32,738 nucleotides of DNA from an uncultured Thermotogae bacterium (GCA_964599005.1 CAZRDU010000004.1:1-32738), one strand, 5' to 3'; shown: positions 6,025 through 29,494, counted from the stretch's first letter. Notes: generated by a model from the sequence alone, not told the origin. Numbers and translations: made by a program.

Positions 6025-7436
6025 ATTCTCACCTTCCGGAGACCGCGGCGGAGGTCCTCGCAATCAGGACCCGCCCGAAGTGCTTTTAACCGGTTTCGTG
6101 AATCTCCGATAATCTCCTTTTCATTACTCCCGCCGAATCCAAGGTTTAATGCCGCGTCCGCTCCGGCGATCGAACCTTCCAGCATAGCGGCCGTGGCTTC
6201 CTCGATTCCGGCGGCGTCCCCGGCGGCGTAAATATCAGCTTCGCTGGTTTTCATTGCGTTATCCCTTAAAGGTACATGGCCACCCAGCTCCTGGACGTAT
6301 TCCAGTTCACACCCGGCATGAGCCAGGAGTTTGTAACTCGGAGAAAGGCCGACGGCCAGGGCGACCGTGTCTACGTTATACTCTTTCCTCGTAGATGGTA
6401 GCTCATTTCCCGACTCGTCGATTTTTACTATACTTGCCTTTTTCACTTTGTCTTCTCCTTTTACATTTAATACTTTGTGTTCGGTTAGAATAGGCACGCC
6501 AAACCTGCTTATCTTGGCGGCGTGGACGAAATAGCCGCCGATTTGTGGTGCTACTTCAACTACGGCCTCCACGTCGACATCAGCCTGGAGAAGCTGATAG
6601 GTCACGATCAAACCGACATTGCCAGCTCCAACCATCAAAACCCTGTCGCCGGGCTTGATTCCGTAGACGTTCATCATGGTTTGAATGCCTCCGGCACCGT
6701 AGACTCCCGGCAGGTCGTTGCCGGGGAAGCCAATCATATCTTCATTGGCGCCGGTACTCATTATGATCTTTTTTGGATTTATTTTGAAGAATTTTTCTCG
6801 ATTTTTATATAGACCAACGGTGTCGTCGTATATCCCAACGGAGCTGGTCTCCGTCATTATTTCGATTTCTTCGGTTTCTTTTACCTGCCTTACTAGCTTA
6901 TCACAAATTTCCGTTCCTCTGGTTCCGGCTTCCTGTTCGCTGGAGCCAAAGAACTTGTGGGTCTGTTTGATAAGTTGACCCCCGAGAAACGGGTTTTCAT
7001 CGACTATCGCGACCTCGGCACCGGCATTCGCGGCAATAAGTGCCGCCTTTAACCCGGCCGGACCGCCGCCAATTACGAGAACGTCAGTTGTTTCCGTTTT
7101 TATCGCTTTCGGAGTAAGCCTATCCGAATTGTCTTTTAGCCCGGGCAAACCGGTCTGTTTCTTTACTTTCATCCCTTCCCGGACTGCCGTGATACAGGTT
7201 CTTACATTGGGTACTCCGTCTACTGTCATCAAACAGGAAGAACATTTTCCGATGGCACAGAATAATCCGCGAGGCCTTTCTTCTTCTCCGCTTTTTCTCA
7301 ATTCTGTAACGCCGTGATTGTGTAGAGCTGCCGCAATGGTTTCGCCTTTTCTGGCCGTGACTTTTTCCCCTTCATAGGTAAAGGTAACCGTTTCCCGTTC
7401 CTTGAAGGAGAGAATTGGATGGTTTTTAACCCTCAT
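6021..7436 (-). CDS. FAD/NAD(P)-binding oxidoreductase with N-terminal [2Fe-2S] domain; proline dehydrogenase / sarcosine oxidase alpha-subunit-like
   Basis: GLFCAIGKCSSCLMTVDG...C, VIGGGPAGL, GGQLIKQTHKFFG, VGAGNVG, YAAGD. Confidence 0.9.
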   Translation of the reverse strand: MRVKNHPILSFKERETVTFTYEGEKVTARKGETIAAALHNHGVTELRKSGEEERPRGLFCAIGKCSSCLMTVDGVPNVRTCITAVREGMKVKKQTGLPGLKDNSDRLTPKAIKTETTDVLVIGGGPAGLKAALIAANAGAEVAIVDENPFLGGQLIKQTHKFFGSSEQEAGTRGTEICDKLVRQVKETEEIEIMTETSSVGIYDDTVGLYKNREKFFKINPKKIIMSTGANEDMIGFPGNDLPGVYGAGGIQTMMNVYGIKPGDRVLMVGAGNVGLIVTYQLLQADVDVEAVVEVAPQIGGYFVHAAKISRFGVPILTEHKVLNVKGEDKVKKASIVKIDESGNELPSTRKEYNVDTVALAVGLSPSYKLLAHAGCELEYVQELGGHVPLRDNAMKTSEADIYAAGDAAGIEEATAAMLEGSIAGADAALNLGFGGSNEKEIIGDSRNRLKALRAGPDCEDLRRGLRKVRI

Positions 7437-23533: not shown

Positions 23534-24589
23534 ATGGAGTGGAAAGGTGTTCTCGATCGGTACTTCGAATATTTACCAATTGAAAGTCGAGAGAATATCG
23601 TCAGTTTGACCGAAGGAAATACGCCATTAATAAGGGCGAAAAACATCGAAGAAAAGCTGGAAGACGATCTGGAGGTATATCTAAAGTACGAGGGTGCGAA
23701 CCCTACTGCGTCCTTCAAGGACCGGGGTATGACAGTGGCCGTATCAAAAGCGGTAGAAAAAGGTGAAAAGGCAGTAATTTGTGCCTCGACAGGCAATACG
23801 TCGGCCTCAGCTGCAGCGTTTGCGGCCAGGTCTGGCCTGGAAGCTATTGTCGTTATTCCGGAAGGAAAGATTGCTTTTGGGAAGCTTTCTCAGGCCATGA
23901 TGCATGGCGCAACGGTTGTCCAGATTGAGGGGAACTTTGACGAGGCGCTGGAGCTAGTTCTGGAGATTTCCGAAAACTATCCAGTAACCCTGGTAAATTC
24001 GCTCAACCCTAACAGGATCGAGGGGCAAAAAACCGCATCTTTTGAAATATCTGACTTTCTCGGTCGGGCCCCGGATTATCACCTCCTGCCCGTTGGCAAT
24101 GCAGGCAATATTACCGCTTACTGGAAGGGGTACAAAGAATACTACGAGTCGGGACAGACCGAGGTGTTGCCAAAGATGACGGGCTTTCAGGCAGCGGGGG
24201 CTTCGCCGATAGTCGACGGAAGGAAAGTTGAGAACCCGGAAACCGTGGCGACTGCCATTCGGATAGGGAACCCTGCCAGCTGGGAAAAAGCTGAGAACGC
24301 CCGGGACGAGTCCGGTGGAATGATAGGAAAGGCGAGCGACGAAGAGCTCATAGAGGCATATCAAGCCCTGGCAAGTAGAGAGGGTGTTTTCTGTGAACCG
24401 GCTTCCGCAGCTTCCATAGCGGGATTGTTCCAGATGGACGGAACGGGTTATTTCGACCAGGGTAGTGTCCTGACATGTACATTAACCGGACACGGGCTAA
24501 AGGATCCAGATATAGCTATTGAATCCAGCGAGGAACCGGTAACTGTCAAAAACGACGTCGATGAAGTACTGGAGGTCTCCGGTTTATGA
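23534..24589 (+). CDS. thrC: Threonine synthase
   Basis: EGNTPL, KYEGANPTASFKDRG (PLP lysine), CASTGNTSAS, PVGNAGN, EPASAAS, TGHGLKD. AGGAGG SD. Confidence 0.97.
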   Translation: MEWKGVLDRYFEYLPIESRENIVSLTEGNTPLIRAKNIEEKLEDDLEVYLKYEGANPTASFKDRGMTVAVSKAVEKGEKAVICASTGNTSASAAAFAARSGLEAIVVIPEGKIAFGKLSQAMMHGATVVQIEGNFDEALELVLEISENYPVTLVNSLNPNRIEGQKTASFEISDFLGRAPDYHLLPVGNAGNITAYWKGYKEYYESGQTEVLPKMTGFQAAGASPIVDGRKVENPETVATAIRIGNPASWEKAENARDESGGMIGKASDEELIEAYQALASREGVFCEPASAASIAGLFQMDGTGYFDQGSVLTCTLTGHGLKDPDIAIESSEEPVTVKNDVDEVLEVSGL

Positions 24590-25774: not shown

Positions 25775-26875
25775 GTGATGATAAACTGTGTAGAAATTAC
25801 GGGAACACCACTGGTCCAGATAGGACTGGGTACTGTCGGACTGGAACTAATTAAGCTGGTAGAGCGCTGGAACGAATCGGCAGAGGAAGGTGCCGGGTTG
25901 AAGTACGTTGGTCTGGCTGACAGCAGCGGGTTTAGCCTTAATGAAGACGGCTTCAACACCAGCGAACTTGAGAAAGTCCGGGATGATAAGCTAGCCGGAA
26001 AAAAACTCTCTCAAATAAGCAAAAACCGCGTTAAAGAGGGCTCAGAAGCACTCGAATCGGTATTTGAAGGTTTCGATCGTGGCGTGTTAATTGACGTCAC
26101 GGACGCCAGTTCTTTGAGCAAGTTCTACCGCAAAGGGTTCGAACACGATTGGTCGGTCGTAGTCGCGAATAAGATCCCTTTGACTGAAATCACTCCGGAA
26201 GAGTTTAAGGAGTTTAAGGAAGATGGGATAGGCTATGAAGCAACAGTGGGTGCCGGTTTGCCCGTCATTTCTACGTTAAAACAGCTTCAGCGTCAGGGCG
26301 ACAGGGTTAAAGAAATTGGTGCTATTTTGAGCGGTTCACTCAGTTATATTCTCTCGGCAATAGAAGACGGCCAGGTCCTGTCGGAAGCTGTACTGGGTGC
26401 CAAGGAGAAAGGGTTTACCGAACCAAATCCCGTGGAGGATCTGGTTGGAAACGACGTAGTCAGGAAAGGTCTGATACTGGCTCGGAGTCTAGGGATGAAC
26501 CTGTCAGTAGCGGATGTGGATGTGAACCCGCTGGTTCCGCTACCGGAAAAGGACTTCTCCGATCAGGAACTTAAGCAAAAATTGGCCGAATTCGACGAGG
26601 ACTTTCGCGCAAAGGCTAAATCCGCCGAAAAAGCCGGAAATCGTCTGAGGTATCTGGCGCGGGTAAATAAAGATGGGGTAAAAGTAGGGCTGGAGGAACT
26701 GGATTCCGAATCGCCGCTTGCCGGAGGTTCAGGTACTTCGAACGTAATTCAGTTCAAGTCAGATAATTACGTCGAACCGCCGCTGGTAATTCAGGGACCG
26801 GGCGCCGGTCCGGCGGTGACTGCCGGGGGCGTTTTGTCAGAAATTAACGCTTTTTCTGGATGTAGACTGCAATAG
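25775..26875 (+). CDS. hom: Homoserine dehydrogenase (no ACT domain)
   Basis: IGLGTVG, VVANK, YEATVGAGLPVI, GFTEPNPVEDLVGND, GPGAGPAVTAGGV. Exact start uncertain (GTG 25775 or ATG 25778). Confidence 0.93.
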   Translation: MMINCVEITGTPLVQIGLGTVGLELIKLVERWNESAEEGAGLKYVGLADSSGFSLNEDGFNTSELEKVRDDKLAGKKLSQISKNRVKEGSEALESVFEGFDRGVLIDVTDASSLSKFYRKGFEHDWSVVVANKIPLTEITPEEFKEFKEDGIGYEATVGAGLPVISTLKQLQRQGDRVKEIGAILSGSLSYILSAIEDGQVLSEAVLGAKEKGFTEPNPVEDLVGNDVVRKGLILARSLGMNLSVADVDVNPLVPLPEKDFSDQELKQKLAEFDEDFRAKAKSAEKAGNRLRYLARVNKDGVKVGLEELDSESPLAGGSGTSNVIQFKSDNYVEPPLVIQGPGAGPAVTAGGVLSEINAFSGCRLQ

Positions 26876-27183
26876 AGGAGTTGTGATGAGGTCATTATTT
26901 GAGCGAGCTTTTTCTTTCCCGTTCGATAAAACCGCAGGCGATTTCCCCGGCGTGGAAATCGCTGCTTCGATCTCAGCCTCGCTCCCCAGCGCACAAATGA
27001 GTTGCGGCGCTCGGGAGAAGGTAGAAAGCCTTGAGTACGCGCAGTAATTTACTGGAACGGAGGCCATTGATCGGGTCCAAGCAACTGTTCTCATTTGAGC
27101 GCTGGTTCCATGCCCGCTCGGCTTCCGATGTGATTTTCCTGAACGGGAAGAAAAATCTCGCTTTCGCTAGAACCTCAGCTCTT
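26876..27183. other. Unclassified ~300-nt highly base-paired intergenic element (structured ncRNA/cis-regulator or MITE-like)
   Basis: 26902-26924 pairs with 27141-27162 (21 bp); 26934-26965 forms a 12-bp hairpin; 26986-27005 pairs with 27081-27105; 26887-92 pairs with 27172-77. Confidence 0.6.
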
Positions 27184-27306
27184 AAAAGAGTGAAGTATAA
27201 AAGCGGTTTGGAATAATTTTGTTAATTTGGATCACTAAATTTTTAGAAAACAGTTTAGAATTATGTTTCAAAAATATTAATGCCAAAGAAATTTTCGGGA
27301 GGAAAC

Positions 27307-28317
27307 ATGAGTGATTACTGTGTCGGAATCATCGGTGCACTTGGAGCTGTCGGTGAGCAGATGAGGGATATCCTCGCGGATAGTTCGATAGATATCGGGG
27401 AAGTAAAGATGTTTGAACGACCGGAACTCGAAGGAGAGACCGCAATGTTTGACGGGGTAGAGATACCCTGTGAGGTCGCCACTGAGGACAACCTGGCGGA
27501 GTGCGACCTTGCCACTATGTCAGCCGGTTCGGCTGCCTCGGAAAAGCTTGCTCCTCTTGCAGCTGACGCGGGATGCGTTATAGTCGACAACTCAAGTCAG
27601 TGGCGGATGGATCCTCAGGTGCCGCTGGTCGTCCCCGAGGTTAATCCGGAAGATCTCGACTGGCACGAGGGAATCGTGGCAAATCCGAACTGTTCTACGA
27701 TCCAGATGGTAATGGCTTTGAAACCAATTCACGATGAGTACGTTATACAAAGGGTCGTGGTCTCTACATATCAGGCCGTCTCTGGCTCGGGTGTCGATGC
27801 GATAGAAGAGCTTAAGGAGCAGACGGAAAGTATAGTAAAGGGGGAAGAACCGGAAGCCAGTGTCTATCCTCATCGGATAGCCTTTAACGCTTTGCCGCAT
27901 ATAGACGTCTTTCAGGAGAACGATTATACGAAAGAAGAGATGAAGATGGTAAACGAAACAGAGAAAATTATCAGTGAAGATATCGCGGTTAGTCCCACCG
28001 CGGTACGGTTACCTATCTACCGTTCTCACGCCGAGTCAATCAACATCGAAACGGAAAAATCACTTGATCCAGAGGGCGTCAAAAGACTGATGGAAGAGGC
28101 TCCTGGAGTGAGGTTACAGGATGATCCGAAGAACGAAGAATACCCTCTACCAGTTCAGGCAGAAGGAAAAGACGAGGTCTTCGTTGGCAGAATAAGGCGT
28201 GACCCTACAGTGGATAACGGGATGAACTTCTGGGTGGTAGCTGACAACTTAAGGAAGGGCGCGGCACTGAATACTGTACAGATAGCTGAAAGTCTCGTTG
28301 AGAGAGATCTAGTCTAA
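27307..28317 (+). CDS. asd: Aspartate-semialdehyde dehydrogenase
   Basis: GALGAVG, DNSSQWRMDPQVPLVVPEVN, ANPNCST, STYQAVSGSG, DNLRKGAALN. ATG 27307 follows GGAGG. Confidence 0.97.
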   Translation: MSDYCVGIIGALGAVGEQMRDILADSSIDIGEVKMFERPELEGETAMFDGVEIPCEVATEDNLAECDLATMSAGSAASEKLAPLAADAGCVIVDNSSQWRMDPQVPLVVPEVNPEDLDWHEGIVANPNCSTIQMVMALKPIHDEYVIQRVVVSTYQAVSGSGVDAIEELKEQTESIVKGEEPEASVYPHRIAFNALPHIDVFQENDYTKEEMKMVNETEKIISEDIAVSPTAVRLPIYRSHAESINIETEKSLDPEGVKRLMEEAPGVRLQDDPKNEEYPLPVQAEGKDEVFVGRIRRDPTVDNGMNFWVVADNLRKGAALNTVQIAESLVERDLV

Positions 28318-28342
28318 ATCTTGTAGCGTGGAGGTGGTTGCA

Positions 28343-29494
28343 ATGTCCAGAGTCGTGAAAAAGTTTGGAGGAACTTCACTTGCAGGCCAGGATAAGATAG
28401 AATATGCCGTTGAAGAAGTCGTTCGTGATCTGGAAAAGGATAAAGAGGTTACCGTCGTGGTATCGGCGATGGGTGCGGCGGGAGATCCCTACGCCACCGA
28501 CACGTTAATTGATCTCCTCAGTGATGTTTCACCTGAAATAGACTCACGGAAGCAGGACCTTATGATGTCCTGTGGCGAGATAATATCGGCTTCTTTATTT
28601 GCCCATTATCTCGACCGCGAAGGTTACCCCGCAGTTCCGATGACGGGATATTCAGCTGGTATTTATACTGACGGTAATTTTGGTAACGCGCAGGTAATAG
28701 ACGTGGATACTGCCAGAATCAATCAGCATACCATGGAGGGAAAACCCGTGGTGCTGGCAGGGTTTCAGGGCAGGACTGTTGATGGAGAACTCACCACTCT
28801 GGGAAGAGGGGGGAGCGATACCACGGCTCTGGTGGTAGGGGAAAAGCTGGGGGCGGATATTGTAGAAATTTATACGGATGTTCCGGGGGTAGGGGTAACT
28901 GAGCCCGATATAGTCGACCAGCCGCGCTATTTTTCGACCATTTCGAGAAGATCACTTCTTCATCTGGCTGAGAACGGAGCCGAGGTAATCCATCCGCCAG
29001 CAGTCACCAGAGCTCGGGAATCCGGTACCCCGATTGTGATAAAGTCCACCTGGAACAGGAGTAATGAAACGATAGTCGAAGGAGATTCCGTTGTTCCGGA
29101 TCATCCGGTAGGGATAGCCGTGCAGCACGATTATACAATGCTTGAAGGGGATAGCAAAAAAATCAACAGGGATCAAACACTTGCCAGTAGAGCGGAAGAA
29201 GTATTTTACGTTGACGGCGAGAGAAGCATAGCTCTTGTCCCTGATGAGAACACGCCCCAGAAGAACGGCTACAGGAGACGTGAAGGGGTGAGTCTCGTTA
29301 CCATGGTCGTGACGGATCCCGCTCTGACGGTTAAGGCGAGGCAGAAAATTCTTAATTCTCTTCCAGGCGAGAGTTTTTTGGAAAAATTCTTTACCGATTA
29401 TGGATTGAAGTTCGTCGTAAGCAAAGAAGAACATGAATCCTTAATTAGGAGTATATACGACGTGTTTTACGAAGCCGCTGTTCCGGTCCAGTAA
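28343..29494 (+). CDS. dapG: Aspartate kinase, DapG (aspartokinase I)-like
   Basis: KFGGTS, VVVSAMG..GDPYATDTL, SCGE, TTLGRGGSDTTA, YTDV. ATG 28343 follows GGAGGTG. Confidence 0.88.
   Translation: MSRVVKKFGGTSLAGQDKIEYAVEEVVRDLEKDKEVTVVVSAMGAAGDPYATDTLIDLLSDVSPEIDSRKQDLMMSCGEIISASLFAHYLDREGYPAVPMTGYSAGIYTDGNFGNAQVIDVDTARINQHTMEGKPVVLAGFQGRTVDGELTTLGRGGSDTTALVVGEKLGADIVEIYTDVPGVGVTEPDIVDQPRYFSTISRRSLLHLAENGAEVIHPPAVTRARESGTPIVIKSTWNRSNETIVEGDSVVPDHPVGIAVQHDYTMLEGDSKKINRDQTLASRAEEVFYVDGERSIALVPDENTPQKNGYRRREGVSLVTMVVTDPALTVKARQKILNSLPGESFLEKFFTDYGLKFVVSKEEHESLIRSIYDVFYEAAVPVQ

Follow-up and report, generated by a model that had tools for sequence, protein, structure and literature searches.

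The structured segment between the genes for homoserine dehydrogenase (hom) and aspartate-semialdehyde dehydrogenase (asd), located at positions 26901-27164 of the window (i.e. the whole stretch of 32,738 nucleotides analysed here), is a diverged copy of a lineage-restricted, structured extragenic repeat, the A element, that probably spread as non-autonomous mobile DNA. A preliminary description of this DNA had offered three readings, namely a novel structured RNA, a cis-regulator of asd and aspartokinase, and a non-autonomous mobile element with inverted ends of ~22 bp. The last of these is the best supported, although it is not proven. A elements are confined to two of three sampled genera of one Bipolaricaulota family of hypersaline habitats, and the window likewise comes from a member of the Bipolaricaulota, its hom having its best named relatives in Candidatus Bipolaricaulia and Acetothermia MAGs (52-55% identity). 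Among the DNA runs that contain about half of the words sampled from the stretch are hypersaline-lake and brine metagenomes; no RNA run is listed as containing it.

Upstream of the element, the gene for a PALP enzyme (23534-24589) is followed, with an overlap of 4 nt, by a phosphoglycerate-mutase-like gene of the cofactor-independent family PF10143 (24586-25773) and by hom (25775-26875, plus strand; Pfam Homoserine_dh, E 6.8e-43). For genes of the PF10143 type, a role as substitute homoserine kinases of threonine operons has been proposed. Downstream lie asd (27308-28317, plus strand; ORF and Pfam), whose likely ATG start at 27308 stands behind GGGAGG and whose longest ORF starts at 27280, and a gene of the amino-acid kinase family (28328-29494, plus strand; AA_kinase, E 4.4e-42), the aspartokinase of the preliminary description. 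ORFs and Pfam matches thus bear out the names given earlier to all three flanking genes. The element had also been said to start right at the hom stop; the hom frame ends at 26875, and the element begins 11-26 nt past the stop codon. The AT-rich sequence reported to follow it is present as a spacer of 143 nt 5' of asd (27165-27307, plus strand), which lies outside the repeat and whose asd-proximal ~130 nt are conserved in G009 (L104), the nearest relative at the hom-asd locus. A simple scan revealed no promoter-like site in 26700-27400 and no terminator-like site after the A element.

The copy at hom-asd is a long form of 264 bases with an expanded second hairpin, as defined by a covariance model and BLAST; the model (R1) matches 26900-27164 on the minus strand of the window with 109.4 bits (E 1.5e-27). 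The element is enclosed by the closing stem P1, whose 5' arm (26902-26924; inverted repeats I1 and I2) pairs with its 3' arm (27141-27162) in runs of 6, 8 and 7 pairs, interrupted by one mismatch and one bulge; the repeat finder aligned 26902-26919 with 27145-27162 and 26910-26936 with 27129-27155. Inside P1 follow the junction GATAAAACC (26925-26933), which is conserved in the printed family copies and by per-column conservation, and the conserved hairpin 1 (26934-26965; inverted repeat I6), in which GCAGGCGATTTCC and GGAAATCGCTGC flank a loop and which has the core GCGATTTCC/GGAAATCGC at 26938-26962 (26938-26949 with 26951-26962 in the repeat finder). The second conserved junction (26966-26985) is one base short of the family consensus, reading GCTTCGATCTCAGCC here and GCTTCCGATCTCGGCC in the family, and metagenome contigs have an extra C behind 26967 relative to the window. 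Hairpin 2 (26986-27105; inverted repeat I3) is variable and consists of a 16-bp stem (26986-27001/27090-27105), the arms of which are 94% complementary, and an 88-nt interior that has no second copy in the relatives' loci compared or in the window's own genome. The third conserved junction (TTCCATGCCCGCTCGGCTTCCGATGTGATTTTCCT; 27106-27140), which is the second conserved BLAST module (query positions 249-287), leads to the 3' arm of P1. Finally, an outer TGAGGT (26887-26892) pairs with ACCTCA (27172-27177) in the minimum-free-energy folds of both strands; this pairing is specific to the window's copy and absent from the family consensus.

All pairings of the preliminary description, i.e. the long-range ones, the outer TGAGGT/ACCTCA, the hairpin at 26938-26962 and the small CAGTA/TACTG and AAGG/CCTT hairpins, were recovered where it had placed them, and the fold is better than that of dinucleotide-shuffled controls on both strands. 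On the plus strand the 308-nt stretch folds with -121.1 kcal/mol, compared with -98.6 +/- 4.45 kcal/mol in 100 shuffles (z -5.06), none of which was as good; on the minus strand z is -4.50. The view that the structure belongs to no known RNA family (tmRNA, RNase P and SRP included) also holds at the level of Rfam 15, which gave no match at gathering score in the whole window, HEARO and the known ribozymes and riboswitches being among the families searched. At E <= 10, region 26700-27350 returned only three chance-level matches (E 4-8), and a tRNA was the sole match at E <= 0.1 among 11 related loci, with none for A copies or for those of a second repeat, B (see below). A coding reading was rejected, as none of the small ORFs that overlap the element (85 aa on the minus strand, 54 and 61 aa on the plus strand) has a Pfam match and the frame across the conserved core varies from copy to copy. 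No ORF of at least 90 aa spans the element in 53 of 55 copies.

The element is not restricted to this locus. A BLAST search of 40 relatives with 26860-27200 as query gave matches in 18 of 41 genomes, including 17 of the 18 other genomes of the same family and every one of the 14 genomes of the genus, whereas none of the 22 genomes from seven other families of the class was positive. A single genome gave up to 28 matches; G002, G003, G008 and G012 are rich in copies, and G000, G005 and G009 are poor in them. Many copies are located at contig ends, i.e. the repeats break assemblies, which is relevant to anyone binning such genomes. The similarity is concentrated in two blocks, 26919-26988 and 27108-27146, which are up to 97% identical between species and are spaced by ~20 to ~300 nt. 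The covariance model, built from five 168-nt short forms, was positive for 16 of the family's 19 genomes (14 of 14 in genus g1, 1 of 1 in g3 and 0 of 3 in g2) and, in a sample of the phylum, for 11 of 151 genomes, all of which belong to this family, with 0 of 137 in other families. In four metagenomes the core reaches a summed contig depth roughly 13-190 times as high as its flanks. The 12 A loci on metagenome contigs all lie in ordinary gene contexts; viral contigs contained no exact match to a 32-nt core pattern, and plasmids and phages gave no blastn match. A limited full-text search returned, among its top results, no paper on repeats of Bipolaricaulota or Acetothermia, which leaves room for the existence of one.

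The anatomy of the family was drawn from 55 copies (54 distinct), which are 120-430 nt long. A unit consists, in this order, of the closing stem (16-24 bp), the junction that follows it, hairpin 1, an unpaired conserved stretch, hairpin 2 and a second conserved stretch ending in TTTTCCTGAA, after which the other arm of the closing stem completes the element. The sequence of the closing stem changes from copy to copy, but its pairing stays. In short forms, such as the 168-nt copy at L119:701-868, hairpin 2 is reduced to a stem of ~8-10 bp with a loop of 3-4 nt, and the middle between CTCGGCCTC direct repeats is missing; other copies have inserts of 90-300 nt at this position, including a whole B element.

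The helices covary strongly. In the covariation alignment 95.8% of the cells are in standard pairs, compared with 82.5% in shuffles, and 39 of 63 pairs show changes on both sides, values that were reached in none of 500 shuffles but that overstate independence, since the structure went into the fitting of the alignment and the copies are related to each other. When the partners are slid by 1-3 columns, pairing falls to 32-49%. All 18 pairs of P1 (helix 1) keep pairing in the family, 17 of them with both-sided changes, and such changes occur in 9 of the 19 pairs of hairpin 1 (helix 5), where GCGATTTCC is replaced by, e.g., GTGAATTCC or GTAATCCCC, each with the matching partner. While the helices vary, the junction strands hardly do, most of their positions being at least 95% invariant in 46 cores. 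At a site in a hydrogenase operon the core is on average 92% identical in eight species, whereas the coding DNA on either side is 74-77% identical; the arms of the stem, although still paired, reach only 65% there. Moreover, the identity of the 46 full cores is the same within genomes (0.876; 82 pairs) as between genomes (0.871; 953 pairs), which argues against homogenisation within genomes and for a constraint on the sequence.

The genes next to A copies are unrelated to each other and of ordinary housekeeping kinds: gatB, thymidine kinase, recD2, lexA/dinB, lptF/G, genes for a PLP enzyme and a radical-SAM enzyme, two transketolase subunits, MTHFR, moaC, and the gene for the [NiFe]-hydrogenase large subunit with a ferredoxin-like gene. 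Relative to the orientation of the model, 21 upstream neighbours share the strand of the element and 17 lie on the opposite one; for downstream neighbours the numbers are 14 and 29, respectively. These figures, in which orthologous copies are counted more than once, give no clear rule. In the hydrogenase operon, an A element lies between the [NiFe] large-subunit gene and the 4Fe-4S (ferredoxin-like) gene in at least nine species and one metagenome contig (L002:1445-1616, i.e. G000 C9:14768-14939 in the window's genome; L004, L119, L123, L128, L133, L137, L138, L015, L121 and L209), and in some species the element is flipped relative to the genes.

Many A copies are accompanied, 25-60 nt downstream and on the same strand, by the second structured repeat, B, a unit of ~190-320 nt in which a separate closing stem, likewise covarying, is combined with a variable hairpin and conserved unpaired stretches, again with no match in Rfam. 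Copies are found, e.g., at G000 C71:89-158, L125:900-1220, L127:870-1100 and, on the minus strand, L025 near 6377-6563. B also occurs in a contig of a named Candidatus Acetothermia MAG. In some long A copies B forms the interior, sitting at the tip of hairpin 2. A 9-nt motif, CCTATCGGA, is present in the tail of B and, on the opposite strand, in the core of A. The arrays are arranged as B-A-B or as REP-A-B-REP, and the presence of REP hairpins beside A and B makes them mosaics of several motifs. Genes for RAYT-like Y1 transposases (178 and 248 aa) were observed in L200:600-2500 (G012) and L201:1-1100 (G002). They lie amid many REP hairpins in both orientations, whose loop and flanks are conserved and whose stems vary, and the REP hairpins of these loci also adjoin A and B arrays.

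Two further features of the arrays were noticed. One subfamily of A has an extra shell, an imperfect inverted repeat of ~40 nt ending in ATAGTGTAG...CTACACTAT, in which the core is found in either orientation (L159, L161, L162 and L145 vs. L165, L172 and L147). In addition, long hairpins of the form CCAGC(A/G)C...G(C/T)GCTGG serve as variable arm of both A and B and also occur alone; examples are 26986-27105 in the window, the hairpin of B (e.g. L125), G000 C58:150-240 and L171. The REP hairpins of the genus have a similar CCAGCAG start on one strand. Judged by these sequences, A, B and the REP hairpins possibly have a recognition motif in common.

How might such elements have spread? We envisage that the A family would have been dispersed as MITE-like (or BOX-, bcr1- or BIME-like) DNA, with the enzyme supplied in trans. 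The properties expected from the preliminary description were found in part: the element is multi-copy and intergenic and has inverted ends of 16-24 bp, whereas the target duplications that, together with many copies, had been named as the mark of a MITE were not seen, and no partner was found. Inverted arms of 16-29 bp are present in 48 of 50 copies examined, being cut by a bulge in ungapped extension in the other two. The stem is the least conserved part and has no fixed terminal motif, the reverse of usual transposon ends. Beside the stem ends of 50 copies (five were skipped by a motif filter) there is no consistent direct repeat indicative of a target-site duplication, and a comparison of flank with flank gave no general signal of direct repeats either; some subfamilies have conserved sequence beyond the stem, and the true outer ends are therefore uncertain.

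The search for a partner enzyme covered three transposase families (PF07282, PF13358 and Y1_Tnp). None of ~30 arrays examined adjoins a transposase gene, and TnpB-type (PF07282) and DDE_3 (PF13358) genes were found in none of five copy-rich genomes. A RAYT-like Y1 gene is present in 2 of 14 genomes of the genus and does not track the A copy number; as the genomes are 70-90% complete, these counts do not establish absence of a partner. The RAYT-like genes are flanked by REP hairpins of 25-35 nt with a different sequence and not by A elements. A REP/REPIN mobilised by RAYT was accordingly rejected as the class of A, which is a three-helix unit and differs from the RAYT-flanking repeats. Since neither target duplications nor a transposase partner were found, we infer mobility rather than observe it.

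Many copies occupy the same sites in several species. A comparison of the window's genome with the sequences on either side of 54 copies gave 12 two-sided matches, the intergenic part of which is too diverged to place the ends. The G011/G001 pair could not be aligned across the site, two G002 copies met only filled or broken sites in five relatives, and none of the metagenome contigs over 26300-27800 bridges a clean empty site. These contigs contain two variants of the hom-asd copy. In one, from a hypersaline-lake run, 26897-27092 is deleted with a 6-base ambiguity at the joint, and in the other 26991-27100 is replaced by a 14-nt sequence that closes a short hairpin.

In relatives, the hom-asd junction is mostly empty. 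Of the 18 other genomes of the family, 14 yielded an asd gene (15 loci recovered), with hom just upstream at 11 loci, and only one of these 11 junctions, that of G013, contains an A element; the other 10 consist of ~30-200 nt without it. In the fetched stretch, G013 hom is 79% identical to that of the window over 61 C-terminal residues, compared with ~52% for the others, and the G013 copy has a related closing stem and a B-type interior. In G009, whose contig starts ~215 nt before asd, the sequence further upstream of asd does not match the element. The hom-asd spacer of G011 (L106:1300-1500) is a different, GC-rich sequence of ~200 nt that matches neither the A BLAST query nor the model.

The hom-asd copy would have arrived in the common ancestor of G000, the window's genome, and G013, and would now be decaying. 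According to a profile search, the window's copy is the only full one in G000 (71% complete). It has a one-base deletion and several core substitutions and scores 109 bits, compared with ~190 for the best copies. In addition, G000 contains a 5'-truncated copy at the hydrogenase site (C9:14814-14896), weak remnants at C22:6983-7044 and C28:17679-17749, where G009 and G002 have full copies, and, at the start of contig C71, one fragment of B. Immediately past the hom stop, ahead of the element, there is an RBS-like site with an ATG that resembles the real asd start (26876-26900 vs. 27295-27325); in G013 (L111) the sequence after the hom stop is GGAGGTTAGTATGA and the asd start GGAGGTAAGTATGA. This site may be a duplicated asd start that was made on the element's arrival, and it is not general among other copies. 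Being positioned between two genes on the same strand, the hom-asd copy is probably transcribed with them; it would be no sensor for the aspartate pathway, and the most that its long stem could provide is a generic site of mRNA processing or stability.

The strongest alternative takes the A core, and probably B as well, as a multi-copy functional structured RNA under purifying selection, of which the hom-asd copy is a degenerating example; the module could be protein-binding or catalytic, or could provide a signal for mRNA processing. The core is more conserved than its flanking genes and its helices covary, which keeps the structured-RNA reading alive at the level of the family; at this locus, the novel RNA of the preliminary description is no single-copy RNA gene. 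The architecture of invariant junction strands and variable helices is RNA-like, the copies within a genome show no extra similarity, and they lie inside operons, where transcription would reach them. The minus strand of the window gave 113 G.U and 21 A.C pairs and the plus strand 89 and 30, i.e. the excess of G.U is stronger on the minus strand, but each count was made on the structure predicted for that strand, so that the lean towards the minus strand is weak evidence. Against this stand the occurrence of the element in either orientation relative to its neighbours, even at one shared site, its confinement to one bacterial family and its truncation or decay in G000 without visible replacement. 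Moreover, the arms of palindromes can stay complementary through mutational template switching, which could also have kept the stem paired. We thus regard a selected, multi-copy RNA as doubtful.

In a more specific form of this idea, the A core and B would represent undescribed classes of functional structured RNA, i.e. a small ribozyme or a protein-recognition module, which could ride on, or be, a mobile unit. Purifying selection on the junction nucleotides would account both for a core that is more conserved than neighbouring genes and for the equal similarity of copies within and between genomes; nonetheless, we consider new RNA classes unlikely. Taken together, a family-wide function of the core, be it as RNA or as a protein-binding site, is possible, but it is clearly less probable than spread as mobile DNA.

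The element could also act at the level of DNA, as a BIME-like architectural unit in which the core would be a protein-binding site and the stem a cruciform, with nucleoid proteins, gyrase or a recombinase as possible binders. The mosaic arrays with REP hairpins and B in intergenic DNA, the indifference to orientation and the motif that the B tail and the A core have in common on opposite strands are in line with this idea, and the BIMEs of E. coli, which bind IHF, gyrase and Pol I as summarised in PMC3184786, provide a precedent for protein binding. However, the covariation of three helices exceeds what a duplex protein-binding site needs, and we judge this role improbable.

Least credible of all, and hardly worth maintaining, is control of asd and aspartokinase by a riboswitch or attenuator that responds to a metabolite of the aspartate family: it would account for the position between hom and asd and for a fold well above shuffled controls, but the lack of the element at 10 of 11 junctions and more than 50 related elements beside unrelated genes refute a dedicated regulator, asd keeps its own conserved AT-rich upstream region in common with G009, where the sequence further upstream has no match to the element, and there is neither a terminator-like site past the element nor an Rfam match. 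The cis-regulator of the preliminary description, and with it the single copy conserved before asd and aspartokinase by which it was to be recognised, must therefore be given up.

A tempting false lead is removed, as the structure is not a new riboswitch of the aspartate pathway, nor should hairpins of this kind beside other operons of the same genomes be taken for gene-specific regulators. In an uncultured, salt-loving lineage, structured repeats of at least three kinds are combined in mosaic arrays, and one of them has a core that is conserved more strictly than the adjacent enzymes at shared operon sites and yet occurs in either orientation. If this constraint comes from an RNA or protein partner, the repeats would be new functional modules; if it comes from a mobilising enzyme, that enzyme would recognise a structure rather than fixed ends.

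Several known repeat systems resemble the A family in part. Like Correia elements (CREE/NEMIS) and ERIC-type MITEs, A is small, has no ORF, forms a long stem from inverted ends and often lies in operons. Correia and ERIC-type MITEs have fixed terminal inverted repeats and target duplications, whereas the ends of A are its most variable part and no duplication was found. The middle of BOX elements consists of a variable number of boxB units; that of A is a variable-length hairpin or a nested second element, and A also differs from BOX in sequence and host phylum. Following the description in PMC3184786, BOX from Streptococcus pneumoniae is MITE-like, 67-637 bp long, transcribed and thought to be mobilised in trans, and A is like it in being modular, with paired conserved end modules, a variable middle, a wide length range, intergenic location and multiple copies. 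Of the features that go with the general definition of MITEs as given in PMC3184786, A has the small size, the lack of a transposase gene, the inverted ends and the many dispersed copies, and the hom-asd site, filled in two genomes and empty at 10 junctions, adds a difference in presence and absence.

The bcr1 repeat of the Bacillus cereus group (Klevan et al. 2007 in PMC3184786) is a dispersed intergenic repeat of ~155 bp that is transcribed and in which compensatory base-pair changes keep a cruciform-like structure. Compared by description, A elements are likewise dispersed and intergenic, with a structure kept by paired changes. Unlike A, bcr1 is described in PMC3184786 as having flanking 5-bp direct repeats and positions that are not conserved between strains, whereas no direct repeats were found at A copies and many of their positions are common to several species. 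A REP is a GC-rich palindrome of 20-40 nt, in contrast to A with its 120-430 nt, three helices and conserved unpaired strands; nevertheless, the genus combines REP hairpins with a RAYT-like Y1 gene, as in the REP/BIME mosaics with RAYT outlined in PMC3184786. Taken together, in its modular and nested behaviour the A family resembles, by analogy and as far as these systems are portrayed in PMC3184786, the BOX, BIME and bcr1 repeats.
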